Of a DNA stretch of 64,000 bases, positions 3,275 through 16,891 are shown in pieces. The notes below the pieces were generated by a model. The model was not told the DNA's origin. It worked only from the letters and a program-made list of their open reading frames with translations, and ran no database searches. Source of the DNA: Escherichia phage EC128. Each line of letters starts with the position of its first letter. Position 1 is the stretch's first letter. A program made the translations under genes and the position numbers. The stretch is taken from the sequence record ON210139.1; one strand, given 5' to 3'.

Positions 3275-3460
3275 ATGAAACGTTGTGAATTAATTCGAAA
3301 TGTTGCTATTGCAATTTCTGCTTCTGCTTTTAGTTTTTCAATGTTTGTTGGATTTATATGTGGATTATTAACTACAGCAGAAAATGTGTTTTCACTTGTA
3401 GTAGCATTTTTAATTGGTTTAATCGCTATCGTTATGGATAAAATTTCTAAAGGTGAATAG
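3275..3460 (+). CDS. small hydrophobic membrane protein
   Basis: 61 aa, GAGGAG RBS, two predicted TM helices. Confidence 0.5.
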   Translation: MKRCELIRNVAIAISASAFSFSMFVGFICGLLTTAENVFSLVVAFLIGLIAIVMDKISKGE

Positions 3461-3842
3461 AATGTATAAAGTGTATGCGGATTATCAGGCTAATCCATCT
3501 GAAAAGCCAGGTTGTCAAATTGGATGGGCTCATGATACTTTGCTTGAAGCAGTAGATGCTGCCCAAAAATTGGGATATAAATATGTAGAGATTGTTCAAC
3601 CGTCAGGAAAAGTTATTACTCTTGAAGAGTTCAATAATATTAAACCAAACTTTTTACTTTTTGCAGGTGATAATTATTATCCTCGTGGTGGATATGCTGA
3701 TTTAATCGCGAAAGCCGCTACCGAAGATGAACTTCGTGATATTATTAAAGAAAATGAAAATAAACCGATGTATGGTTCTAATCGTTTTGACTGGTGGCAA
3801 ATTGTAAATGCCCATACGCATACTATTGTTGATGAAGGTTGA
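3453..3842 (+). CDS. hypothetical protein
   Basis: 129-aa ORF, start overlaps upstream stop (translational coupling). Confidence 0.5.
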   Translation: MNRMYKVYADYQANPSEKPGCQIGWAHDTLLEAVDAAQKLGYKYVEIVQPSGKVITLEEFNNIKPNFLLFAGDNYYPRGGYADLIAKAATEDELRDIIKENENKPMYGSNRFDWWQIVNAHTHTIVDEG

Positions 3843-4132
3843 TAATGATTCTTTATGCGAAAGTATCATCCATTGAAAATGGATATAAATATGATCAAGA
3901 AGCAGCTAAAGCCTTGATTGATGATTATGGCATTTTAACATATTTTGAAGTTGAAAAGGTTTACATTGACCGTTCATCTTCTCAAGTTAAATTAGTAAAG
4001 GAAGACCGTAAATTTAATACAGTAAATTTTGATTTCTTTATTGAAACAGAAAAAGGTCCTCTTGAATATGATATTTTCAAGAATCCTTTGGGTCTTGAAT
4101 GCATCGTAAATATGTATTATCATAAATGGTAA
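3839..4132 (+). CDS. hypothetical protein
   Basis: 97-aa ORF coupled to upstream gene (ATGA overlap). Confidence 0.5.
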   Translation: MIMILYAKVSSIENGYKYDQEAAKALIDDYGILTYFEVEKVYIDRSSSQVKLVKEDRKFNTVNFDFFIETEKGPLEYDIFKNPLGLECIVNMYYHKW

Positions 4133-4229
4133 ATATGCTTTAAGAATTATTTGTTATTATTAACTCATATCGCACTGATTAATACCCTCTATCATCAAGG
4201 GTTCTTGCTTAAGAGCCTTTGTTAATAAT

Positions 4230-6590: not shown

Positions 6591-6672
6591 AAAAATTTTT
6601 TCACAAAACTGTTTACATCCCTGTTCTTCCATGGTACTATACAACTATCAACTACTGATACAGAAAACAACT
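6591..6672 (+). promoter_or_regulatory. early promoter inside a conserved cassette (copy A)
   Basis: aaaaattttttcacaaaactgtttaca...atggtactatacaactatcaactactgatacag; near-identical to 50011-50097 and 21347-21433. Confidence 0.6.
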
Positions 6673-6683
6673 TGGAGAACGAA

Positions 6684-6947
6684 ATGGATAATTACGGCGA
6701 ACTGTTCAACTTCTTTATGAAATGTGTTTCAGAAGATTTCGGTCGTACAGTGAATGATATTAAAGTTATCGGTCCTGATCATCCGATGTTTGAAACTTAT
6801 GCGGTAATGGGCAATGAAGACGGTCAGTGGTATACTGTAAAGGTTGTGATTAACATGTTCACTGCTGAAAGTTATGTTAAACTGTCTTCTAAAGTTTACC
6901 ATGATAACGACGAAATCGCAGAAGAATATTTCAATAATATGAAATAA
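6684..6947 (+). CDS. hypothetical acidic protein
   Basis: 87 aa from ATG 6684 with GGAG RBS; ORF open from TTG 6672. Confidence 0.5.
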   Translation: MDNYGELFNFFMKCVSEDFGRTVNDIKVIGPDHPMFETYAVMGNEDGQWYTVKVVINMFTAESYVKLSSKVYHDNDEIAEEYFNNMK

Positions 6948-6985
6948 GTTTACATAGGCTCATGATTGAGATATTATGAGCCTAT
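6948..6985 (+). promoter_or_regulatory. early promoter
   Basis: GTTTACA then GAGATATTAT; overlaps inverted repeat GGCTCAT...ATGAGCC. Confidence 0.5.
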
Positions 6986-7003
6986 ACAAATGAGGAAAAC
7001 ATT

Positions 7004-7339
7004 ATGAAACGTAACTTTAGTAAAGCTTTTTGTAATAGAAATAATTATCCTGAAGAGCTTTTTGAATCTAAGGAATTTAAAGAGTTTAACGAACGTTCTC
7101 AAAACATGCCTGTACAATGGGTGTTAGATTATGCCAATCGTATCTTTGAAGGTGTGCGGGATATTTGTCCTGATGATGAAACTCCTTATTTTAAAAAGGC
7201 TTGGGAACTCGTCAATCAAGCATATATCAATGCTTCAGAATCTTATAAAGGTACTGACGATGATTTTACTTTATTGGCTATCAATGATGCCGTTATCGAG
7301 GCCATTGACGTCTTTATCGATGAGATAGACGAAGAATAA
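7004..7339 (+). CDS. hypothetical acidic protein
   Basis: 111-aa ORF with GAGGAAAA RBS. Confidence 0.55.
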   Translation: MKRNFSKAFCNRNNYPEELFESKEFKEFNERSQNMPVQWVLDYANRIFEGVRDICPDDETPYFKKAWELVNQAYINASESYKGTDDDFTLLAINDAVIEAIDVFIDEIDEE

Positions 7340-7377
7340 GTTTACAATCTATTAAAAACGTGATATTATCTAATTGT
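7340..7377 (+). promoter_or_regulatory. early promoter
   Basis: GTTTACA ... TGATATTAT upstream of 7397. Confidence 0.5.
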
Positions 7378-7396
7378 ATCAATCTAAGGAAATACT

Positions 7397-7990
7397 ATGA
7401 ACACACTGAAGAAAATTGTTGAGTTTATTCGCACTAAACTTGGTTCTGCTATGGCTAAAAATCTATCTGTTGAAGAACAGTATACTGCTGCAGCAGCAAA
7501 ACTACTTGATAAGATTAAAGATCTAAAAACTGCTTCTGTTAAATCTATTAATGAAGAAAAGCGTATTCGTGAACTTATTGTCGAAAAGAATAAGCAGGCC
7601 GAATCAAAAGAGCGTGAAATTCGCAAGCTTCTTTCGGAAGGTCAAGATGTAACAATGCATGCTAAACTTGGTTTACTATATCGTCGAACAGCTGAGCAGT
7701 TGACTACTAAAGCTGATGGTTATGCTGAAATGCGAATTGAAATCGCCAAGAAAGTAGTTGAGTTAGATGATGCTCGCCAAGAACTTGCAGTTAAATTGGA
7801 ATATATCCGTGAAACTCGCGCCGCGAATGCCCTCGGAATTAGTACTGCCGATGATGTAGTTGAAATTGCAGCACTGACTAAGGTTGATATTGAAGATACT
7901 CTTGCTCGAGTTGAAACCTTTAATGGTAATATTTCTGGGGTTGAAACTACCTCTGCCGATGTCCAGGAATATATTAATTCTCTGAAATAA
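7397..7990 (+). CDS. coiled-coil hypothetical protein
   Basis: 197 aa, AAGGAAA RBS, heptad-rich. Confidence 0.55.
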
Positions 7991-7995
7991 TGATA

Positions 7996-8011
7996 AGGGG
8001 CTTCGGCCCCT
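7996..8011 (+). terminator. UUCG-tetraloop hairpin AGGGGCTTCGGCCCCT (terminator-like, weak U tract)
   Basis: Perfect 6-bp GC stem; identical 16-mer at 47142. Confidence 0.4.
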
Positions 8012-8031
8012 ATTACTTGGAGTAAATAGGA

Positions 8032-8637
8032 ATGAAAATGCAAAGTGATTTCAATTCAATGTTTGAAGAGTTCCAAAGACAGGTTGATGTTCCAGATCAA
8101 TTACTAAATGCTCTTAAACGTATGGCAGAAGGACGTAATTACTATTGGGGGTCTTCATACGAAACTGATGAAAGTCTTTCTGGATTTTATAAAGGTAAAA
8201 AGTCTTTAATACGTCCTGGAATACTCATTAAAAGTATTGAATCAATTCATTCATTGACGTGTGATTTTGATGTTGAATTTACTGATTTCATTTCTCCTGA
8301 ATGGACAGTTTGTTATTTAAATGACGATTATGATTATCTTGGCGTTTACAGTTTAAGTGACGCATGGTTTAAACGTAATTTACAAAAGTCAAATTTGTTC
8401 TATATTGATACTACGGTAAAATTTCAGGGAAAGAAATATTTCTTTACTCTTATAGTTGACTCTGAAACAAAATATGAAAATAAGCGTATTCTTAATAAAA
8501 AGAATATCTTAACTATCGTTGATGATCTTTTTGATAAATTCGTGGAAAATCCTAATTTTGAAAGCGATTTATTATTAGAAAAATTTGTTAAGGAATGTAG
8601 AGAATATGTCAAAGCCATCACTATACCTTCCAAGTAA
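8032..8637 (+). CDS. hypothetical protein
   Basis: 201-aa ORF; 3' end carries the conserved junction sequence that forms the next gene's RBS. Confidence 0.55.
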   Translation: MKMQSDFNSMFEEFQRQVDVPDQLLNALKRMAEGRNYYWGSSYETDESLSGFYKGKKSLIRPGILIKSIESIHSLTCDFDVEFTDFISPEWTVCYLNDDYDYLGVYSLSDAWFKRNLQKSNLFYIDTTVKFQGKKYFFTLIVDSETKYENKRILNKKNILTIVDDLFDKFVENPNFESDLLLEKFVKECREYVKAITIPSK

Positions 8638-8836
8638 ACCTGTGAAGTATGAACTAAAGCGTCAGCTAATTCCTACTGATGTATTAATAGGTCCTGTGAC
8701 AGCTATATCATTTGTAATTCTATTGGTTGTTGGAATGGTTATAGACTTTATGACTGATATTGAATCTGGCGTAATATTTTTGTTAGTATTAATTCTTCCA
8801 TTAGTAGTTCCATTTTTATTGGTACCTGTAAATTGA
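8606..8836 (+). CDS. small membrane protein ending at an in-frame TGA
   Basis: 76 aa with two hydrophobic helices; TGA at 8834-8836. Confidence 0.5.
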   Translation: MSKPSLYLPSKPVKYELKRQLIPTDVLIGPVTAISFVILLVVGMVIDFMTDIESGVIFLLVLILPLVVPFLLVPVN

Positions 8837-9001
8837 GTAGGATATTGGTATCAAGGAAGGCATTATCGTAAACGTGTACGTGAATGGAAAGCTCAGTGTA
8901 AAAAGATTAAAAAGGAACACCAGCTTAAATTAGATATGCATGAATTTAACGAAATTATGAAATTTGTTAAGGAATCACGATGCAAAAGCCAAAACTAAAT
9001 A
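8837..9001 (+). pseudogene. start-less open frame continuing in-frame after the TGA (readthrough extension or gene remnant)
   Basis: 54 sense codons in the same frame as 8606..8836, with a basic tail resembling the C-termini of the 8980 and 9351 products. Confidence 0.3.
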
Positions 9002-9354
9002 AAGTCAAATATTCTTTTTCTGAGTCATTTTTAATTTTTGCTGTGGCGTTGGCTGCAGCTCTTGCTGGTAGTCTTATTGGATTAATGATTGACTGTATTA
9101 TTTTAAACATCCGCAGTAATGTCAGCGGTATAGTAGATATAATAGAAGTTTGGAGTGAACTTCACTATACTAAAATTATTTCATTATTTTCATTCTTTGG
9201 TACCATGTTATATTTTCATTATGATAATTTTAAAATAAATTGGCAAAGAAAAAAAGATTACAAAATACAATTAAAAGAATATAATAGCTACATGTCTTAT
9301 ATTGAAAAAGAATCAATGGAAGAGTTTGTGAGTGATTGTAGGAAAATTAAATGA
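8980..9354 (+). CDS. small membrane protein
   Basis: 124 aa, N-terminal TM segments, C-terminal ...DCRKIK. Confidence 0.55.
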   Translation: MQKPKLNKVKYSFSESFLIFAVALAAALAGSLIGLMIDCIILNIRSNVSGIVDIIEVWSELHYTKIISLFSFFGTMLYFHYDNFKINWQRKKDYKIQLKEYNSYMSYIEKESMEEFVSDCRKIK

Positions 9355-9839
9355 TTTTAAAAACTCGCTGGTATGATTTAGATGATGGGGATGATGGCAT
9401 TTCAGTTGATAGAGTTGACTGGAATGGTTGTTCCGAAGATATGAAAAATTTGTTGATTAGGGAGTTTAGAATGGGATATCAAGCAGCTAAGCCATTTACT
9501 GTAACAGATGATAAGTTCGTATGTATTCAAAACGGTCGCGCTAAGTTAACGAACGCTGATTGGTTCACAGATAAAATTATGATTCTGTGGTATATTATTA
9601 GTCTTCCTGTGACATCATTCGTATTTTGCTTCTTTGGAGAAAGTCCAATGGACAAAACAGGAGATTGGGTTATTTTAACCATACTTGTTAATATTTTTAC
9701 AGCAGCAATATTATCTGGGATATGGTACACGTTCATTGAAATGCCATGGCGTTTACGCAGACAGCAAAAGATTTTTGATGAAAAGAAATATACTCAAAAT
9801 TTAAATAACTTTATCACTGAATGCAGGAAATTAAAATGA
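9351..9839 (+). CDS. membrane protein
   Basis: 162 aa, hydrophobic core, C-terminal ...ECRKLK; ATGA coupling. Confidence 0.55.
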   Translation: MILKTRWYDLDDGDDGISVDRVDWNGCSEDMKNLLIREFRMGYQAAKPFTVTDDKFVCIQNGRAKLTNADWFTDKIMILWYIISLPVTSFVFCFFGESPMDKTGDWVILTILVNIFTAAILSGIWYTFIEMPWRLRRQQKIFDEKKYTQNLNNFITECRKLK

Positions 9840-10276
9840 AAACACTATCAGCTGGTATTATCTTTATGACAGAAGATAAAGATTTATTCATGGGACGGGT
9901 TACTGGTTCTCGTAAGCCTGGAATGATGGCACATCGCTGGGATATTCCAAAAGGCCGTGTAGAAAATTCTGATTTGAGCGCACTAGATGCAGCACGAAGA
10001 GAATGCTTAGAAGAGACCGGTTTTAGCAATTATAATCCAGACCTTCTAGAAGACCTAGGTGTATTTAAATATTCTAGTAATAAAGACTTACAGCTGTTTT
10101 ATTATACGATTCCAGTAGAGCATGAGATGTTTAGAAATTGCCATTGCGAGTCTTATTTTGAAAATAAAGATGGTGTTATGATTCCAGAGATGGATGCTTT
10201 TGCTCTTATTCCTCGTACTCAGTGGCAATATGTGATGGGTCCTTCACTTTACCGAATAATGAACAGCCTCTTTTAA
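9821..10276 (+). CDS. nudE: Nudix hydrolase NudE
   Basis: 151 aa; Nudix box GRVENSDLSALDAARRECLEETGF. Confidence 0.8.
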   Translation: MQEIKMKTLSAGIIFMTEDKDLFMGRVTGSRKPGMMAHRWDIPKGRVENSDLSALDAARRECLEETGFSNYNPDLLEDLGVFKYSSNKDLQLFYYTIPVEHEMFRNCHCESYFENKDGVMIPEMDAFALIPRTQWQYVMGPSLYRIMNSLF

Positions 10277-10807
<531 letters not shown>

Positions 10808-10811
10808 AGTT

Positions 10812-10850
10812 GTTTACTTTCTCCTAGAATTGTGATAGTATATTCACAGT
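10812..10850 (+). promoter_or_regulatory. early promoter
   Basis: GTTTAC ... TGTGATAGTATAT upstream of denV. Confidence 0.5.
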
Positions 10851-10866
10851 TACTTGGAGGGATAAA

Positions 10867-11283
10867 ATGACTCGTATTAATTTGACTTTAGTATCTGAAC
10901 TTGCTGATCAACATTTAATCGCAGAATACCGTGAATTGCCGCGTGTTTTTGGTATAGTTCGTAAGCATGTGGCAAACGGTAAGCGCGTTAAAGATTTTAA
11001 AATATCTTCTAAATTTATTTTAGGTTCTGGTCATGTTACTTTCTTTTACGATAAGTTAGAATTTTTGCGAAAGCGTCAATCGGACATTATAACGGAATGC
11101 TTAAAACGCGGGTTCAGTATAAAAGATACTGAAGTTCCTGACATCAGCGATATTCCAGTAGAATGGAAAAATGATTATAATCCATGCAAATCAGCTATTA
11201 AGTTGAGTCAACAACGACTCGATGAAAAAATTTTAATGAAGCCACACTGGTATAAGTATTACGGCAAAAATATTTACATTTAA
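10867..11283 (+). CDS. denV: endonuclease V, pyrimidine-dimer DNA glycosylase
   Basis: 138 aa, [29 protein letters not shown]..., GGAGG RBS. Confidence 0.9.
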
Positions 11284-11380
11284 ATAACATGGGAATAACC
11301 TGGACCTCATGATTCTGTGAGGGATTCCCGCCAACCTGTAATAAGGTCGAGCCCAAGTGCGGTAATGGGTAAATACAGAA

Positions 11381-11968
11381 ATGGACAATTCATGCGCCAT
11401 GGAATGGCCCAAACCTAGAGATAACAAAATGAGAACATTTTTAACTGGTCCTTATCTATCCCTGATGAATGCTTTTACACACCATTCTGATGCTAGAGTA
11501 GAAGAAATTTGTAAAAACGAATATATCCCGCCATTTGAAGACTTACTTAAACAGTATTGCACACTTCGACTAGACGGTGGACGTCAATCTGGTAAATCAA
11601 TTGCTGTGACTAACTTTGCTGCTAATTGGTTGTATGATGGCGGAACAGTTATTGTTCTTTCTAATACTTCAGCTTACGCTAAAATTTCTGCAAATAACAT
11701 TAAAAAGGAATTTTCGCGTTATTCTAATGATGATATACGTTTTCGTTTATTTACTGATTCTGTACGCAGTTTTATTGGTAATAAAGGAAGCAAGTTCAGA
11801 GGTTTATCGCTTTCGCGAATTTTGTATATAATTGATGAGCCTGTCAAATCTCCTGATATGGATAAGATTTATAGTGTCCATATTGACACTGTACACTGCT
11901 GCTGTAATATTAAATGTTGTATTGGTGGTATTACTCGTCCACAGTTTTTCGTAATCGGAATGCAATGA
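11381..11968 (+). CDS. hypothetical protein with Walker-A-like GGRQSGKS and a Cys-rich tail
   Basis: 195-aa ORF; start uncertain (alternative ATG 11429); CCCNIKCC near C-terminus. Confidence 0.4.
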   Translation: MDNSCAMEWPKPRDNKMRTFLTGPYLSLMNAFTHHSDARVEEICKNEYIPPFEDLLKQYCTLRLDGGRQSGKSIAVTNFAANWLYDGGTVIVLSNTSAYAKISANNIKKEFSRYSNDDIRFRLFTDSVRSFIGNKGSKFRGLSLSRILYIIDEPVKSPDMDKIYSVHIDTVHCCCNIKCCIGGITRPQFFVIGMQ

Positions 11969-12294
11969 TGACAGACACTCAGCTTTTCGAATATCTTTAT
12001 TTTTCGCCAAAAACTATTAAAAATAAATTGGTGAATCATTTTGAAATTTTGGCAAATAACAACGTCTTGAGCGAATTTTATCCTAAGCAATACAAATTAC
12101 AAAAAGGCGTATTCAAAGGATGTAGAGTTTTATGTACTGCTCCTAATGCACGGCTAATGAATAAAATTCCATATTTTACCATGGAATTTATTGATGGGCC
12201 TTTTAAAGGACTAATCACACAGAGTTTAATGGCATATGATTCTGAGCCATTTTTAATTAAAGAACAATCTTGGATAAATTTATTTTCTAATTGA
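11965..12294 (+). CDS. hypothetical protein
   Basis: ATG overlapping upstream stop (ATGATG); about 110 aa. Confidence 0.4.
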
Positions 12295-12301
12295 GGTTTA
12301 T

Positions 12302-12664
12302 ATGAAAGCATATCAAATTCTTGAAGGCACACATAAAGGTACTATTTATTTTGAAGATGGTATTCAAGCACGAATTATCGTTTCTAAAACCTTTAAAGAG
12401 GACTCTTTTGTAGACCCAGAAATTTTCTATGGTTTGCATGCCCGTGAAATTGAAATTGAGCAACAGCCTACAGTTAAAATTGAAGGTGGTCAACACCTGA
12501 ACGTTAACGTTCTGCGTCGTGAAACTCTGGAAGATGCAGTTAAGCATCCGGAAAAATATCCGCAGCTGACCATCCGTGTATCCGGTTATGCAGTTCGCTT
12601 TAACTCTCTGACTCCGGAACAGCAGCGCGACGTTATCGCTCGTACCTTTACCGAGAGTTTGTAA
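12302..12664 (+). CDS. grcA: autonomous glycyl-radical cofactor, GrcA/YfiD-like
   Basis: C-terminal ...[29 protein letters not shown] matches the glycyl-radical domain of E. coli YfiD/pyruvate formate-lyase; 3' half uses host-like CTG/CGT/CCG codons. Confidence 0.85.
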
Positions 12665-12885
12665 TGGCAAAGATAATTATTGAAGGTTCTGAAGATGTGC
12701 TAAATGCTTTCGCCGAATGGTTTAGTAATTCAGGCGAACAGCAATTTAACGAAGCATGGAACATGGGTGATATTAATGGAATTTATCCTACTACAGAAAT
12801 TTCTGTTCAGGGATATGGCATTCATGAACCTATTCGTTTAGTTGAATACGATTTATGTACTGGTGAGGAAGTCAAATATGATTGA
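12664..12885 (+). CDS. hypothetical small protein
   Basis: 73 aa, TAATG coupling to grcA-like gene. Confidence 0.5.
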   Translation: MAKIIIEGSEDVLNAFAEWFSNSGEQQFNEAWNMGDINGIYPTTEISVQGYGIHEPIRLVEYDLCTGEEVKYD

Positions 12886-13144
12886 AGATATTAAAGGTTA
12901 TAAGCCACATACTAACGAAAAAATCGGTAAAGTAAATGCTATTAAAGACGCTGAAGTTCGTTTAGGACTTATCTTTGACGCTTTATACGATGAATTCTGG
13001 GAAGCACTAGATAATTGCGAAGACTACGAATTCGCAAAGAATTATGCTGAAAGCCTCGATCAGCTAACTATTGCTAAAACGAAACTCAAAGAAGCTAGTA
13101 TGTGGGCTTGTCGCGCGGTATTCCAACCAGAGGAAAAATATTAA
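12878..13144 (+). CDS. hypothetical small protein
   Basis: 88 aa from ATG 12878 with GAGGAAG RBS. Confidence 0.5.
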
Positions 13145-13422
13145 TGGCTCAATTAAGCGCAGGGTTTGGTTATGAGTATTATACTGCCCCTCGTCGTGTA
13201 TCTGTTGCTCCTAAGAAAATTCAAAGTCTTGATGATTTCCAGGAAGTAATTCGTAACGCTTTCCAGGACTATGCGCGTTATCTTAAAGAAGATTCACAGG
13301 ACTGTCTCGAAGAAGATGAAATTGCTTATTATGAGCAGCGTCTTGAACAGCTTAAAAACCTACATGAGGTTCGTGCAGAAGTTACAAAGTCTATGAATAA
13401 ATTGATTAGATTTAAAGAATAA
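13144..13422 (+). CDS. hypothetical small protein
   Basis: 92 aa from ATG 13144 with GAGGAAAAA RBS. Confidence 0.5.
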
Positions 13423-13424
13423 TT

Positions 13425-13462
13425 GTTTACTTTTCCTCTTGACTGTGGTATAATTTTTCTAT
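13425..13462 (+). promoter_or_regulatory. early promoter (GTTTAC, TGGTATAAT)
   Basis: Close match to sigma70-like consensus, upstream of 13482. Confidence 0.6.
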
Positions 13463-13481
13463 CAGTTAAGAGGAGAATAAC

Positions 13482-13943
13482 ATGACTATCAACACAGAAG
13501 TTTTTATCCGTCGAAATAAGCTCCGTCGTCACTTTGAGTCGGAGTTTCGTCAAATTAACAATGAGATTCGTGAGGCATCAAAAGCAGCAGGAGTCTCATC
13601 GTTTCATCTAAAATATTCTCAACATCTTCTTGATCGTGCAATTCAACGGGAGATTGATGAGACATATGTTTTTGAATTATTCCACAAAATAAAAGACCAT
13701 GTTTTAGAAGTTAATGAATTCCTGAGTATGCCTCCGCGTCCTGACATTGACGAGGATTTTATTGATGGGGTTGAATATCGTCCTGGGCGTTTAGAAATCA
13801 CAGATGGAAATCTTTGGCTTGGATTTACAGTTTGTAAACCTAATGCGAAGTTCAAAGACCCGTCACTTCAATGTAGGATGGCCATTATCAACAGTCGTCG
13901 TTTACCAGGAAAGGCTTCTAAAGCAGTAATTAAAACTCAATGA
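13482..13943 (+). CDS. regB: RegB-like endoribonuclease (by size and position)
   Basis: 153 aa, AGGAG RBS, own early promoter; lies between denV and tk as regB does in T4. Confidence 0.5.
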   Translation: MTINTEVFIRRNKLRRHFESEFRQINNEIREASKAAGVSSFHLKYSQHLLDRAIQREIDETYVFELFHKIKDHVLEVNEFLSMPPRPDIDEDFIDGVEYRPGRLEITDGNLWLGFTVCKPNAKFKDPSLQCRMAIINSRRLPGKASKAVIKTQ

Positions 13944-13950
13944 GGTAAGC

Positions 13951-14496
13951 ATGAGAAAAGCACTACTCGCTGGTCTATTGGCCATTTCTATGATGGCACA
14001 TAGCTCCGAGCATACTTTCAGTAATGTCCAACTCGATAACATGCGTTACGCGTATCAATTCGGGGAACAATTTTCCAAGGATGGAAAATATAAAACACAT
14101 AAAAATATCCACAAGAGCGGATTAGGTCATATAATGGCTGCTATTTTATGGCAAGAAAGCTCTGCCGGAGTTAATTTAAAATCTAAACCAAAGCATCATG
14201 CCTACGGAATGTTCCAAAACTATTTGCCGACCATGCGAGCAAGAGTTAAGGAACTTGGTTATAATATGACCGATGCTGAAATAAAAAGAATGTTGAATAA
14301 ACGGTCCAATTCAGCTTCCTGGGCGTACATTGAACTTTCTTATTGGTTAAATATACATAAGGGCGATATAAGAAAAGCAATATCCTCTTATAATTCGGGA
14401 TGGAATGTTAAAGCAGGTTCTAAATATGCTTCTGAAGTCCTAGAAAAGGCTAACTACCTTAAAAATAATAAACTGTTGGAAATAGTAAATGACTAA
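13951..14496 (+). CDS. secreted lytic-transglycosylase-like protein
   Basis: Signal peptide MRKALLAGLLAISMMAHS; motifs WQESS, YGMFQ, SYNSGW typical of SLT domains. Confidence 0.55.
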   Translation: MRKALLAGLLAISMMAHSSEHTFSNVQLDNMRYAYQFGEQFSKDGKYKTHKNIHKSGLGHIMAAILWQESSAGVNLKSKPKHHAYGMFQNYLPTMRARVKELGYNMTDAEIKRMLNKRSNSASWAYIELSYWLNIHKGDIRKAISSYNSGWNVKAGSKYASEVLEKANYLKNNKLLEIVND

Positions 14497-14830
14497 AATT
14501 TTGGTTTTATGTGTAGGATTAATTTCATTTTCTGCGTTAGCAGATATATCATATTCTGAAGTTAGAGAGTATGTAAACCGTACTGCCGCGGATTATTGTG
14601 GGAAAAATAAAGCATGCCAAGCTGAATTTGCGCAGAAATTAATATATGCATATAAAGACGGAGAAAGAGATAAATCAAGCAGATATAAAAATGATACATT
14701 GTTAAAACGATATGCTAAAAAGTGGAATACTTTAGAATGTTCAGTTGCGGAGGAGAAAGATAAAGCCGCTTGTCATTCAATGGTTGACCGTTTGGTAGAT
14801 TCTTATAATCGAGGATTGAGTACTAGATGA
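14489..14830 (+). CDS. secreted Cys-containing small protein
   Basis: 113 aa, signal peptide MTKILVLCVGLISFSALA, 4 Cys; coupled to upstream gene. Confidence 0.5.
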   Translation: MTKILVLCVGLISFSALADISYSEVREYVNRTAADYCGKNKACQAEFAQKLIYAYKDGERDKSSRYKNDTLLKRYAKKWNTLECSVAEEKDKAACHSMVDRLVDSYNRGLSTR

Positions 14831-15306
14831 TTGTAAAATATATCAAGGGCGATATTGTCGCCCTATTTCTTCAAGGTAATATTATTGCGCACGGGTGTAA
14901 CTGTTTTCATACTATGGGTTCAGGTGTAGCGGGTCAATTAGCAAGGGCCTATCCTAAAATTTTAGAAATAGATAAAACCACTACCGAGTACGGTTCTCGT
15001 GATAAATTAGGCGATATGTCTATTGTTTTTAAACATAATCCTACAGGATTTGGTATATGCTATAACCTGTATACACAATACGAACCGGGTCCTAATCTTG
15101 ATTATGGTGCTTTAGTAAACTGCATGATAGAATTAAATCTACAGGCAGAGACTCTTTTGTTTAAACCAGTAATTTACATTCCACGCATAGGTTGTGGTAT
15201 TGCTGGCGGCGATTGGGATAAGGTTTCTAAATTAATCGACATGTTTACTCCTGATATTGATTTGATAGTGGTGGATTATGAAAGTACATTACCCGCATCC
15301 GTTTGA
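14827..15306 (+). CDS. macro-domain (ADP-ribose binding/processing) protein
   Basis: GDI...HGCNCFHTMGSGVAGQLA and PRIGCGIAGG match macro-domain glycine-rich loops; ATGA coupling. Confidence 0.6.
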   Translation: MIVKYIKGDIVALFLQGNIIAHGCNCFHTMGSGVAGQLARAYPKILEIDKTTTEYGSRDKLGDMSIVFKHNPTGFGICYNLYTQYEPGPNLDYGALVNCMIELNLQAETLLFKPVIYIPRIGCGIAGGDWDKVSKLIDMFTPDIDLIVVDYESTLPASV

Positions 15307-15490
15307 TCCTAAAAACAAAGCGGAAATTATTCGTCAATGGGAACGCATTTGCCGTACTAAATGCCCAATTAATAGTCCTCATGATGTAGATAAAGACTAT
15401 ATTGGAACATTCGTTGAATATACCTTTATTGATAGGAAAGGTCGTAAACAACATGTAGAAGAATATTGCTTAAAGGTTACATGGTTATGA
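15278..15490 (+). CDS. hypothetical small protein
   Basis: 70-aa ORF overlapping the macro gene's end. Confidence 0.4.
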   Translation: MKVHYPHPFDPKNKAEIIRQWERICRTKCPINSPHDVDKDYIGTFVEYTFIDRKGRKQHVEEYCLKVTWL

Positions 15491-15693
15491 GCCAAACTAG
15501 TATTCTTAAAAATGCCCATTGTGAAAATTGTAAATGGCCTGTTGTTTTTGCTTTATGTAATGATGAAATGGCCTGTGATTTTGACTATTGGTGCTATTGT
15601 TCTAATAAAGGATGCATCAATCATAAAGGTGAAGGATTTTATTCAGGATTTTATCCTTATCCTGATTTCGTTAAAGAAGGTAAACCAAAATGA
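15487..15693 (+). CDS. Cys-rich small protein (possible zinc binding)
   Basis: CENCKW...CNDEMACDFDYWCYCSNKGC. Confidence 0.4.
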   Translation: MSQTSILKNAHCENCKWPVVFALCNDEMACDFDYWCYCSNKGCINHKGEGFYSGFYPYPDFVKEGKPK

Positions 15694-15863
15694 ATAATTT
15701 TGAGTTACAATATGAAGTGTTACGTGAACTTGATAATTTAATTGAACTCGCTGTTAATAAAGGTTTTGCCATTGGAATTGGTCAAAAAGATACTGATCAT
15801 TTAACTATGGAAATATTTAAGCAAAAACGAATTATTTTAAAACTTCTGGAAATTAATATATGA
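15690..15863 (+). CDS. hypothetical small protein
   Basis: 57 aa, ATGA coupling on both sides. Confidence 0.4.
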   Translation: MNNFELQYEVLRELDNLIELAVNKGFAIGIGQKDTDHLTMEIFKQKRIILKLLEINI

Positions 15864-16045
15864 GTCTGAGCAAAGAACAAAAAGATAAATTGTTTGAGCT
15901 TATCCATGAACTTCTAGATGAGCATACAGAAGTAAACACCTTTTATGATGAATACGGCCCGCTATCTCCCGAACAGCAAGAAGAATTTGCTGACCGGTTT
16001 GATAAGAAAGAAAACGAATTAATAGCTTATGTGAATACGCTTTAA
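15860..16045 (+). CDS. hypothetical acidic small protein
   Basis: 61 aa. Confidence 0.5.
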   Translation: MSLSKEQKDKLFELIHELLDEHTEVNTFYDEYGPLSPEQQEEFADRFDKKENELIAYVNTL

Positions 16046-16054
16046 GAAGGTGAT

Positions 16055-16636
16055 ATGGCGAGTTTAATTTTTACTTATGCGGCAATGAATGCTGGAAAAT
16101 CTGCTTCTCTTTTGACTGCTGCACATAATTATAAAGAACGCGGAATGAGTGTATTAGTTCTTAAGCCTGCTATTGATACTCGCGATTCTGTCTGTGAAGT
16201 CGTTTCTCGCATTGGAATTAAGCAGGAAGCGAATATTATTACGGATGATATGGATATTTTTGAGTTCTATAAATGGGCTGAAGCACAAAAAGATATTCAT
16301 TGTGTATTTGTAGATGAGGCCCAGTTTTTAAAAACTGAACAGGTGCATCAATTAAGCCGAATTGTTGATACATATAATGTTCCTGTTATGGCTTATGGGC
16401 TAAGGACTGATTTCGCTGGAAAATTATTTGAAGGTTCTAAAGAACTTTTAGCGATTGCAGATAAACTTATTGAACTAAAAGCAGTTTGTCATTGCGGCAA
16501 AAAAGCGATTATGACAGCTCGATTAATGGAAGATGGAACACCAGTTAAAGAAGGTAATCAAATCTGTATTGGTGATGAAATTTATGTTTCTTTGTGTAGA
16601 AAACATTGGAATGAATTAACTAAAAAGCTCGGTTAG
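16055..16636 (+). CDS. tk: thymidine kinase
   Basis: 193 aa; P-loop YAAMNAGKSASLL, CVFVDEAQF, C-terminal CHCGKK...C zinc ribbon. Confidence 0.9.
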   Translation: MASLIFTYAAMNAGKSASLLTAAHNYKERGMSVLVLKPAIDTRDSVCEVVSRIGIKQEANIITDDMDIFEFYKWAEAQKDIHCVFVDEAQFLKTEQVHQLSRIVDTYNVPVMAYGLRTDFAGKLFEGSKELLAIADKLIELKAVCHCGKKAIMTARLMEDGTPVKEGNQICIGDEIYVSLCRKHWNELTKKLG

Positions 16637-16645
16637 TGCAAAAGT

Positions 16646-16653
16646 TATAAATA
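16646..16653 (+). promoter_or_regulatory. late promoter TATAAATA
   Basis: Exact motif about 25 nt upstream of 16679. Confidence 0.4.
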
Positions 16654-16678
16654 GGTTTATCTAACTAAAGGGGTATAT

Positions 16679-16891
16679 ATGCTACAATTAACTGAAAAGC
16701 AACTTCGCAATCTTACTGTTCTTCAATTAGATGAAATTCGTAGGGAAGTTGGAAATATCATTTCAGCTTTGCGTCGAGAAGTATCACTCAACCAATCTCC
16801 GGCAGACTATACTAGATTGCGAAATTTTGAAAAATACCTTGATAAAGTTAAGGCCGTGCACCGGCACAAAGTAAATACAGGACAAAAATGA
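16679..16891 (+). CDS. hypothetical small protein
   Basis: 70 aa, AAAGGGG RBS. Confidence 0.5.

Follow-up and report, generated by a model that had tools for sequence, protein, structure and literature searches.

The stretch of DNA analysed here, 64,000 nucleotides of Escherichia phage EC128 (ON210139.1) and referred to as the window, contains a run of small overlapping genes in which one reading frame, starting at 8606, stops at a TGA (8834-8836) and then continues in frame through open codons, while the ends of consecutive genes resemble one another where the next gene begins. The question raised by this locus is whether the TGA marks the natural end of a short gene, a recoding site or a lesion, and what the repeated gene ends contribute. 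The account to which the evidence points, and which is considered very likely, is that of an accessory-block gene, e.4, carrying a one-base nonsense mutation, in a block whose junctions combine a shared peptide with a Shine-Dalgarno (SD) sequence and in which a neighboring gene, e.2, is inserted or deleted at junction repeats.

Gene content and order identify the region, which lies between e.6 and nudE, as the e.5-e.4-e.3-e.2 accessory block of a T4-like (Tequatrovirus) phage. Positions 8032-9839 correspond to T4 e.5, e.4, e.3 and e.2, followed by nudE, lysozyme e and denV, and the annotations of both T4 and phage Kha5h are colinear with the window; T4 e.4 and its neighbors e.5, e.3 and e.2 have the same e.6-nudE position, lengths and overlaps as the genes seen here. 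From e.5 to nudE all genes read left to right with zero intergenic gaps, and their proteins are 76-93% identical to those of T4 and 94-100% identical to those of Kha5h. Upstream, e.6 (7397-7990, + strand) is separated from e.5 by a GC-rich hairpin with a UUCG loop (7996..8011, + strand) at the edge of the gap-free block; the terminator scan picked up this inverted repeat and listed it on the - strand, and as no T-run lies beside it on the + strand it is a candidate terminator at most.

The e.5 homologue (8032..8637, + strand; T4 Y06P, PF26876) is a predicted soluble protein of 201 aa ending in EKFVKECREYVKAITIPSK, with 93% identity to T4 e.5, 100% identity to that of Kha5h and a match to phrog_2607 (E = 1.6e-107). 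Its AF2 model is poor (pLDDT 56), and comparing it with the PDB by Foldseek returned noise, with TM scores of 0.25 or less. The e.3 homologue (8980..9354, + strand; T4 Y06N; phrog_2330, E = 2.3e-62) has 124 aa, one strong hydrophobic segment, a second that is weaker when judged by eye, and a basic tail ending EEFVSDCRKIK. The e.2 homologue (9351..9839, + strand; T4 Y06M, PF26896; phrog_2203, E = 2e-78) has all 162 codons in one open frame, unlike the T4 reference gene, which a -1/+1 frameshift pair disrupts; its 162 aa comprise a soluble N-terminal domain of 75 aa, two transmembrane (TM) segments and a basic tail ending NFITECRKLK. The final gene of the overlapping block encodes the Nudix hydrolase NudE (T4 e.1; 9836..10276, + strand), with a PF00293 match at E = 9.6e-14 and 98% identity to T4 NudE. 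The first-pass annotation had described the small genes as membrane-protein cassettes, which is true of e.4, e.2 and e.3, each with two TM or hydrophobic segments, and untrue of e.5, in which hydropathy revealed no hydrophobic segment.

The block itself is well known and uncharacterised. Each of e.5, e.4, e.3 and e.2 belongs to a separate PHROG in the profile search, and PF26876, PF26873 and PF26896 are recorded on a Logan contig identical to the window. Scans against Pfam, NCBIfam and PADLOC yielded matches below the cut-offs only, and so no believable family or function (the Pfam set searched did not include PF26873), and database names for e.4 such as 'sulfurtransferase' find no support in the Pfam and NCBIfam scans. 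Text searches, which were limited, returned no papers on the e.2-e.6 genes.

The 8606 gene and the codons beyond its TGA are, on alignment, a single gene, the 130-codon e.4 (T4 Y06O_BPT4, listed as 'uncharacterized 15.1 kDa protein in e-segB intergenic region'; Pfam PF26873, Phage_T4_Y06O), which sits between e.5 and e.3 and overlaps both. The 5' part (8606..8836, + strand) supplies 76 codons, comprising the N-terminus and two predicted TM helices, and ends in the mutant TGA; the 3' part (8837..8998, + strand), a conserved basic helix predicted to be cytoplasmic, consists of 53 codons and a TAA (8996-8998), in frame with the ATG at 8606. The in-frame TGA reported previously is thereby confirmed, with 53 following sense codons in place of the 54 counted then, a trivial difference. 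No in-frame start codon occurs in the 3' part before 8936. With the tryptophan restored at codon 77, e.4 matches phrog_2604 over residues 1-130 (E = 1.4e-70), is 100% identical to Kha5h e.4 and finds 99 homologues carrying precomputed PF26873 assignments. The 3' part, identical to the Kha5h e.4 tail in all amino acids and nucleotides, is the most conserved region of the family, phrog_37104 covering residues 73-130. Members of PF26873 typically have an uninterrupted frame of about 130 codons, and as that of EC128 is broken at codon 77 the gene is a nonsense allele of the family, likely a pseudogene, rather than an intact member. Hydropathy and charge indicate two hydrophobic helices and a basic tail, and the AF2 model places helices at residues 24-48 and 54-128; the intact product would thus be a 130-residue inner-membrane protein with two TM helices and a long basic cytoplasmic helix. 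The TGA precedes the e.3 ATG by 144 nt.

It had also been suggested that the open codons remain from a deleted cassette; on this reading the gene ahead of them would be naturally short, with 76 codons, and the tail would have become joined on behind it. The tail does bear the end motif of its neighbors, as such a remnant might, but both halves align colinearly and without gaps to the 130-codon e.4 of T4, Kha5h, RB32 and Mosigvirus phages and add up to the same 393 nt, a single base separates the gene from that of Kha5h, and 76-codon e.4 genes with unrelated downstream sequence are not common. This reading is rejected, and virtually no credence is left to it.

The single gene is broken by a single base. 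Over 1,133 bases (8032-9164), the window is identical to Kha5h except for a G->A change at 8836, the one difference among the 393 bases of e.4. A comparison with orthologous T-even regions, as had been proposed, found TGG at codon 77 in the relatives, T4 and Kha5h included. Scanning metagenome, genome and viral collections with a degenerate pattern, and adding the fetched loci, gave 26 TGG and 1 TGA, the sole TGA locus coming from the window's own source run, SRR21280024. When a 71-mer spanning the TGA was compared with 50,697 phage records, the best matches reached 98.6% (one mismatch) and none 100%; exact 29-mers had no matches in IMG/VR in either the TGA or the TGG version, which makes that scan uninformative. 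Among 19 homologues, down to 54% identity, W77 is invariant and the tail invariant or nearly so. Of the origins offered earlier for the stop, a recent nonsense mutation is the one these data bear out: the TGA is strongly supported as a private, very recent nonsense mutation, in which a G->A transition would have converted the invariant Trp77 codon from TGG to TGA.

A single set of sequencing data documents the TGA, and two alternatives have to be weighed, an error of sequencing or of consensus calling and a variant carried by a minority of the stock; in either case the real phage would have TGG and an intact e.4. A change of one base in one data set is what an error would look like, the rest of the 1,133 bases being identical to Kha5h, and within the protein cluster of the 76-aa product no other member is 76 aa long. 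Against an error, the Logan assembly of SRR21280024 gives the same base, on a contig of 14.8 kb with 100% identity to window positions 6650-16836 (10,187 bases), an independent assembly although probably of the same reads; position 8836 lies outside any homopolymer (AATTGAGTA), the usual site of such errors; and the block often carries other lesions. A base-call error is thus the less likely explanation, and there is little chance that the phage itself has TGG.

If the nonsense mutation is real, the main product expected is a 76-residue, two-helix stub without the most conserved part of the protein, which would amount to loss of function in a dispensable gene. A different outcome would follow if the UGA were usefully read by host tRNA-Trp, with stub and full-length 130-aa protein then forming a regulated pair similar to that of phage Qbeta. 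UGA is the leakiest stop codon of E. coli and its natural misreader is tRNA-Trp, so the readthrough product would be exactly the wild-type protein, and the 53 codons past the stop are intact. This intactness is explained by the youth of the mutation, as no other change separates the gene from that of Kha5h, and the stop is found in no relative (26/26 other loci have TGG). A G follows the UGA, a context other than the weakest, and the 8 tRNAs in the window, the standard T4 set, include no UCA anticodon, which rules out a suppressor of opal codons encoded there. Near the TGA and at the junctions, predicted RNA folding is no better than in shuffled sequences (z from -1.7 to +1.4; z = -0.67 for 8790-8890), ruling out a structure that stimulates readthrough or masks a ribosome-binding site. 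Programmed readthrough would be expected to show a conserved stop together with a stimulatory context, structure or suppressor tRNA; none of these is seen, and by these signs the TGA is not a programmed site. The earlier proposal of leaky readthrough therefore survives in one form, a passive trickle of UGA misreading by host tRNA-Trp that would restore the wild-type protein and shows no sign of use or mark of programming; useful, regulated readthrough is considered very improbable.

In Qbeta, a leaky UGA extends the coat protein into A1, the host tRNA-Trp inserting tryptophan. The two cases are alike in having a UGA followed by an open in-frame extension, at which the same host tRNA would insert tryptophan; they differ in that the Qbeta stop is conserved and its extended protein essential, whereas the e.4 stop occurs in one genome alone, in place of a conserved tryptophan.

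The nonsense mutation lies between gene ends that follow a common plan, in which the C-terminal peptide of one gene overlaps the SD and ATG of the next, as correctly noted in the first-pass annotation for four gene ends. These read KFVKECREY in e.5 (continued by VKAITIPSK), KFVKESRCKSQN in e.4, EFVSDCRKIK in e.3 and NFITECRKLK in e.2, and overlap the gene that starts at the next ATG (8606, 8980, 9351, 9836) by 32, 19, 4 and 4 nt, with AGGA or AAGGA found 11, 6, 7 and 7 nt before these ATGs. In the first junction (J1; 8581..8608, + strand), the e.5 codons K-F-V-K-E-C-R-E-Y contain the AAGGA that precedes the e.4 ATG, at a spacing of 11 nt that is longer than usual. In J2 (8960..8982, + strand), the e.4 codons K-F-V-K-E-S-R-C include TAAGGA before the e.3 ATG. 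J3 (9325..9354, + strand; F-V-S-D-C-R-K-I-K) and J4 (9810..9839, + strand; F-I-T-E-C-R-K-L-K) place AGGA before the ATGs of e.2 and nudE, respectively, each with an ATGA stop/start overlap. The stop/start overlaps and the SD sequences inside upstream coding sequence are those of coupled genes, and since the SD and ATG of each next gene are embedded in motif codons, translation is probably coupled along the block.

All four ends share the peptide F(V/I)x(E/D)(C/S)R. In a six-frame translation of the window, the pattern F[VI].[ED][CS]R has 6 matches, 4 of which are these consecutive gene ends, whereas base-shuffled windows averaged 0.38 matches and never exceeded 1, an enrichment beyond chance. 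A search of T4 positions 1-50,000 and 119,001-168,903 gave no further gene-end motif, strict or loose; a general C-terminal tag of T4 proteins was rejected, as no other gene end matches in the window or in these 100 kb more of T4. Mosigvirus orthologues keep the motif (QFIMECREY, EFVKEIRCK, NFIKECRK), and a distant relative of e.4 ends in EEFIKEVR with a different continuation.

The likeness of the junctions could reside purely in the RNA or DNA, as a ribosome-binding, regulator or recombination site, with the shared peptide as a by-product. Several observations agree with this: the SD-like AGGA or AAGGA falls inside motif codons 6-11 nt before every ATG; no other stretch of the block varies as little as the junctions, the four of which have a nucleotide diversity of 0-0.012 (0.0 within 8962-8991, in J2) compared with a mean of 0.065 and 0.14-0.20 in TM-coding parts; and the e.2 indel is bounded by junctions. 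A 75-nt alignment of J1 contains 26 bases, ggaatgtagagaatATGtcaaagcca, identical in Tequatrovirus and Mosigvirus loci, and the 16-mer AAATTTGTTAAGGAAT, synonymous positions included, occurs exactly twice, at 8581 (J1) and 8960 (J2), as does the degenerate 21-mer GANTGYAGGAAAWTWAAATGA, at 9334 and 9819. However, the SD arises from different motif residues, K-E in J1 and J2 and R-K in J3 and J4, and the distance from motif to ATG is 22, 17, 26 and 26 nt in order. Arginine is encoded by AGA, CGA and AGG and cysteine by TGT and TGC, and the codons for F and V/I vary between genera while the residues are kept. The distant e.4 homologue retains EFIKEVR and then continues differently, and ordinary T4 junctions have good SDs without this peptide. 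The varied codons and distances indicate that selection acts at least partly on the peptide, and an origin of the likeness purely in the nucleic acid is considered quite unlikely. The peptide closes the predicted cytoplasmic tails of e.4, e.3 and e.2, as well as the final helix of e.5, and is probably a common interaction motif left by an old tandem duplication.

How far such a duplication can be traced in the proteins depends on what lies beyond the motif. From hydropathy, charge counts, the e.4 AF2 model and alignments, e.4, e.3 and e.2 have a common architecture of a basic N-terminus, two hydrophobic helices, a tryptophan and basic cytoplasmic tail, and the end motif. Protein similarity is confined to the tails: hhalign aligns those of e.4 and e.3 over 36 columns (E = 1.9e-4, probability 48%) and e.3 with e.2 over 14 columns (E = 2e-4), with probabilities about 47%; for e.2 and e.5 the likeness stops at the motif. 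The tail beyond the TGA had been likened to the C-termini of the next two proteins; with the motif masked, this holds marginally for e.3 (p = 0.0065) and fails for e.2 (p = 0.99), and neither e.4 nor e.3 has anything in common with e.2 beyond the motif. A profile search with e.4 across 1.84 billion representatives retrieved 7 proteins, neither e.3 nor e.2 among them. Paralogy of e.4, e.3 and e.2 is thus weakly suggested.

The junctions also mark the limits of a common presence/absence polymorphism of e.2, which is bounded by the e.3/e.2 and e.2/nudE junction repeats. In the e.2-less phages RB32, Manna and Pu-Krd-SF1 and in a UViG, the e.3 tail is joined to the nudE start via GATTG(T/C)AGGAAATTAAAATGA. 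This hybrid J3/J4 junction is contiguous in at least 35 of 312 records, counted with a 56-nt query because a 100-nt query over-counted by joining pieces across e.2. Being near-identical, the junctions may serve as short direct repeats, recombination between which would have removed e.2, or brought it in, in part of the T4 group. Other lesions in the block include frameshifts in T4 e.2, RB32 e.3, Manna e.4 and Isf-Pm2 e.3, a fusion of e.5 with e.4 in vB_SsoM_113, and the chimeras P0098 (e.4/e.2), P0103 (e.3/e.4-tail) and P0100; the loci were partly picked for odd annotation, and the lesion frequency they give is a biased estimate.

For annotation, 8606-8998 is best entered as one e.4 gene with an internal stop, likely a pseudogene, in place of a short gene followed by coding-like DNA or a recoded gene. 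EC128 would be a natural e.4 knock-out one base away from Kha5h over 1.1 kb, and could help to assign a phenotype to e.4. The broad biological weight of these results is small; the four-gene tail motif and the clean e.2 indel between junction repeats appear, from limited text searches, not to have been described before, and serve as small testable handles on how the accessory regions of T4 are built and reshuffled.

Known systems resemble parts of this locus. In T4, alt.-1/alt.-2 (in the T4 record, a duplicated gene part with a stop codon and a new start introduced) is an accessory gene likewise split into adjacent pieces on the same strand; that split is an old one, and each piece is annotated as an ORF that has a start of its own, whereas the e.4 split is one base old, with no start in the 3' part until 8936. 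The indel of e.2 resembles the classical rII deletions of T4, which run between short direct repeats; in both the end-points fall in a short repeat, here TG(T/C)AGGAAA(A)TTAAA(A)TGA. Unlike the rII case, the e.2 repeat is itself kept by selection, through the peptide motif and the SD/ATG, so the same indel can recur or be exchanged between phages with the flanking genes undamaged.

A further parallel is with PeSLs, the intergenic mobile regulatory cassettes of T4-type phages that consist of an early promoter and a stem-loop (Arbiol et al. 2010, PMC2839356; Comeau et al. 2014, PMC4122927). In both systems repeated junctions flank small accessory ORFs in a variable region, and the single chimeric junction that ORF loss leaves behind, as proposed for RB49 ORF192 in the PeSL literature (PMC2839356, PMC4122927), is seen in the hybrid junction of the e.2-less phages. 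In contrast to the intergenic PeSLs, the e-block junctions lie inside overlapping coding sequence (overlaps of 4-32 nt), have no significant stem-loop and repeat over only about 14-20 nt; a promoter scan gave 27 scattered consensus-like matches where 18.7 were expected, none at the junctions. A speculative proposal, to which we give a modest chance, is that the motif with its SD/ATG forms a dual-purpose module, in which the peptide would dock e.5 and the three membrane proteins on one partner while the DNA would offer an in-frame splice point for each gene. If this were true, cassettes such as e.2 could be lost, gained and swapped among T4-like phages with the translation of their neighbors unbroken, a coding-sequence counterpart of intergenic PeSL shuffling of which the P0098 and P0103 chimeras and the recurrent e.2 indel would be the footprints.

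The window belongs to a T4-like (Tequatrovirus) genome; none of 50,697 deposited phage records is identical to it, and the highest matches reach approximately 96–98%. Comparison with the annotated records of T4 and of a related phage, Kha5h, identifies four plus-strand genes as e.5 (8032-8637), e.4 (8606-8998 when whole), e.3 (8980-9354) and e.2 (9351-9839). The standard T4 set of eight tRNA genes lies upstream, and nudE (9836-10276), lysozyme gene e (10313-10807) and then denV follow 3' of the block. The genes themselves are already known, since T4 annotations have included them for decades; the novelty lies in a private knock-out allele of e.4 and, besides it, a small, apparently undescribed C-terminal motif. 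Each gene falls into its own PHROG of unknown function, and the Pfam families Phage_T4_Y06P, Y06O and Y06M are precomputed on a public contig identical to the window. Pfam, NCBIfam and PADLOC scans of the block returned nothing credible, and literature text searches found no paper on the e.5-e.2 genes. The names carried in some records by e.4 (sulfurtransferase), e.5 (site-specific RNA endonuclease) and e.6 (host specificity protein) look like propagated mis-annotations; neither Pfam and PHROGs scans of the three proteins nor an NCBIfam scan of e.4 and e.5 supported them. Between e.6 and e.5 lies a GC-rich hairpin with a UUCG loop (7996-8011, AGGGGCTTCGGCCCCT), and the record of the Mosigvirus PhAPEC2 has a putative terminator annotated at the equivalent place. 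Downstream, lysozyme gene e leads directly into denV (10807-10867), where T4 has ipIII and ipII, and Kha5h and others a different small ORF; this gap is another variable spot.

The reading frame opening at 8606 ends at a TGA (8834-8836) and, as the first-pass annotation had noticed, stays open beyond it, for 53 in-frame sense codons up to a TAA (8996-8998). The whole e.4 of 393 nt has the same length in T4 and Kha5h. The suggestion that the continuation is a deleted-cassette remnant is wrong. Both phages have TGG, encoding Trp77, at the site of the stop, and the only nucleotide difference from Kha5h e.4 is a G to A change at 8836. As it is also the only difference over 8032-9164, that is 1.1 kb, it is younger than any other substitution there. 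From 9165 to 9818 there are 40 differences, and position 9165, within e.3 and not at a junction, is a mosaic (recombination) breakpoint relative to Kha5h. A 71-mer around the TGA matched 69 phage records, none at 100%, with the top at 98.6%, or one mismatch. Searches of metagenome, genome and viral collections with a degenerate pattern permitting either TGG or TGA, combined with the fetched comparison loci, gave 26 loci with TGG and one with TGA. The latter, a Logan contig from run SRR21280024, matches window 6650-16836 at 100% identity and is evidently the source of the window itself; the 76-residue e.4 product was found solely there. Trp77 is invariant in 19 homologues with identities down to 54%, and no part of the protein is better conserved than the tail that follows. 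A base-call error is less likely: the A is supported by one data set only, but it does not lie in a homopolymer, and the independent Logan assembly has the same base. The stop is private to this genome and the change at 8836 is a recent nonsense mutation, as had been proposed.

Hydropathy, charge distribution and the AlphaFold model of e.4 (pLDDT 71; helices 24-48 and 54-128) give a predicted N-in/C-in topology, in which the second helix leaves the membrane and extends as a long, basic helix in the cytoplasm. The TGA coincides exactly with the predicted border between membrane and cytoplasm; the stub would therefore retain both membrane helices with the whole tail gone, and the tail could not be produced by itself because the first in-frame start codon past the TGA occurs only at 8936. 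Of the leaky readthrough also put forward for the stop, a passive trickle survives at most. In E. coli, tRNA-Trp reads UGA by mistake at a low frequency, so that any e.4 readthrough product would be exactly wild type, which makes TGG to TGA the mildest possible nonsense change, yet this mildness is no evidence for a programmed event. Against recoding, no relative has the stop, no tRNA with a UCA anticodon is encoded in the window, and the RNA fold around the TGA is no better than that of shuffled sequence (z = -0.67).

The four genes end alike: e.5 in KFVKECREY..., e.4 in KFVKESRCKSQN, e.3 in EFVSDCRKIK and e.2 in NFITECRKLK. Translated in six frames, the window has six instances of the pattern F[VI].[ED][CS]R, where shuffling gives an expectation of 0.38, and four of the six are the consecutive ends of e.5 to e.2. 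In another 100 kb of T4 the pattern was not seen at any other gene end, even in loosened form. The junctions J1 (e.5/e.4) and J2 (e.4/e.3) have in common an exact 16-mer absent from the rest of the window, and J3 (e.3/e.2) and J4 (e.2/nudE) a 21-nt degenerate pattern. The claim that one stretch of bases both codes for the upstream C-terminus and supplies the downstream ribosome-binding site holds: AGGA or AAGGA precedes the following ATG by 11, 6, 7 and 7 nt at J1 to J4, and the genes overlap by 32, 19, 4 and 4 nt. The peptide is more than a by-product of the Shine-Dalgarno sequence, because the Shine-Dalgarno codons differ (K-E in J1/J2, R-K in J3/J4), the distance from motif to ATG varies (22, 17, 26 and 26 nt), the codons vary (AGA, CGA or AGG for Arg, TGT or TGC for Cys), Mosigvirus orthologues of 36-54% overall identity retain the motif with other codons (QFIMECREY, EFVKEIRCK, NFIKECRK), and a distant e.4 relative ends in EEFIKEVR.... 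Conservation of the junctions was likewise upheld: nucleotide diversity across ten Tequatrovirus loci has its minima there (0-0.012; mean 0.065) and its maxima in the membrane-helix regions (0.14-0.20), a profile that fits a double constraint from two overlapping frames and the Shine-Dalgarno sequence. No RNA structure was evident at the junctions. The conserved junctions are real and are best explained by a tail peptide of four consecutive genes that overlaps the next translation start. In PhAPEC2, three tandem small ORFs immediately 3' of e.3 (3357-4151), homologues of RB69 ORF139c, 137c and 136c, all end in GWV(S/A)SSxxC, a second run of adjacent genes with a common C-terminal motif; the C-terminus of PhAPEC2 ORF135c reads ...NIACREI.

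Of the genes described as small membrane-protein cassettes, e.4, e.3 and e.2 encode hydrophobic helices, but e.5 is a soluble protein of 201 residues that shares nothing but the motif, in its last predicted helix, and whose structure model is too poor for fold comparison. Proteins e.4 and e.3 have an architecture in common with the C-terminal half of e.2, in which a basic N-side is combined with two hydrophobic helices, a Trp, and a basic tail that bears the end motif. The N-termini of e.4 (MSKPSL...) and e.3 (MQKPKL...) are alike, and hhalign aligns their tails at E = 1.9e-4 (probability 48%); e.3 and e.2 are similar only over the last 14 residues, and e.4 and e.2 show no similarity by hhalign. 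It had been claimed that the tail past the TGA resembles the next two C-termini; with the motif masked, this stands marginally for e.3 (p = 0.0065) and fails for e.2, with no similarity remaining for e.4/e.2, e.3/e.2 or e.4/e.5. An e.4 profile run against 1.84 billion representative proteins found seven, neither e.3 nor e.2 among them. An old tandem duplication giving e.4 and e.3 is plausible from these comparisons; one including e.2 is unproven.

Other lesions are present in relatives. Relative to window 9351-9839, the T4 reference e.2 (NC_000866 67,491-67,960) has a -1/+1 frameshift pair: an A-run has lost one nucleotide, and one has been inserted about 75 nt further downstream. A stop between the two is the reason T4 annotates an e.2 of only 102 aa, where the window and most relatives have 162 aa. 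In RB32 e.3 (L005, 2700-2870), an A7 run near window 9247-9253 has become A11, shifting the frame, and frameshifts are also found in Manna e.4, Isf-Pm2 e.3 and one UViG e.5. Shigella phage vB_SsoM_113 (L017, approximately 1380-1430) has an A-run 1 nt shorter just 5' of J1, which brings e.5 into the e.4 frame and is annotated as a 324-aa e.5-e.4 fusion. Three chimeric or deleted proteins in public data may be real recombinants or assembly artefacts: P0098 (phage vB_EcoM-UFV05), a chimera of e.4(1-32) and e.2(88-162); P0103, in which an e.4 tail is joined to part of a Mosigvirus e.3; and P0100, an e.4 with both membrane helices deleted. These cases, from a sample partly picked for odd annotation and so giving no unbiased lesion rate, show that the e.5-e.2 block is dispensable and often damaged, and one more nonsense allele is therefore unremarkable. 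A Mosigvirus-type e.4 sequence also occurs on a 508-nt contig of the Xanthomonas pisi DSM 18956 draft (NZ_JPLE01000288.1), an assembly most likely contaminated with coliphage DNA.

RB32, an IMG/VR genome, Salmonella phage Manna and Pu-Krd-SF1 are without e.2, and in such loci the e.3 tail is joined directly to nudE by a hybrid junction, GATTG(T/C)AGGAAA followed by TTAAAATGA, whose left portion is that of J3 and right portion that of J4. At least 35 of the 312 phage records that match a 56-nt probe across the hybrid do so contiguously; RB32, RB33 and PP01 are among them. As a side effect of the overlap between tail peptide and start, a common e.2 indel is flanked by the J3/J4 repeats. It seems unlikely that the junction serves as a dual peptide/DNA module for in-frame cassette exchange, and so as a coding analogue of the PeSLs (the intergenic early promoter and stem-loop cassettes of T4-type phages). 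Where ORFs of T4-type phages are flanked by PeSLs, loss of the ORF leaves one chimeric junction (PMC2839356). The e.2-less phages show this same pattern of a lost ORF and a single chimeric junction; however, PeSLs are intergenic modules of promoter and stem-loop, whereas the repeats found here are short coding overlaps.
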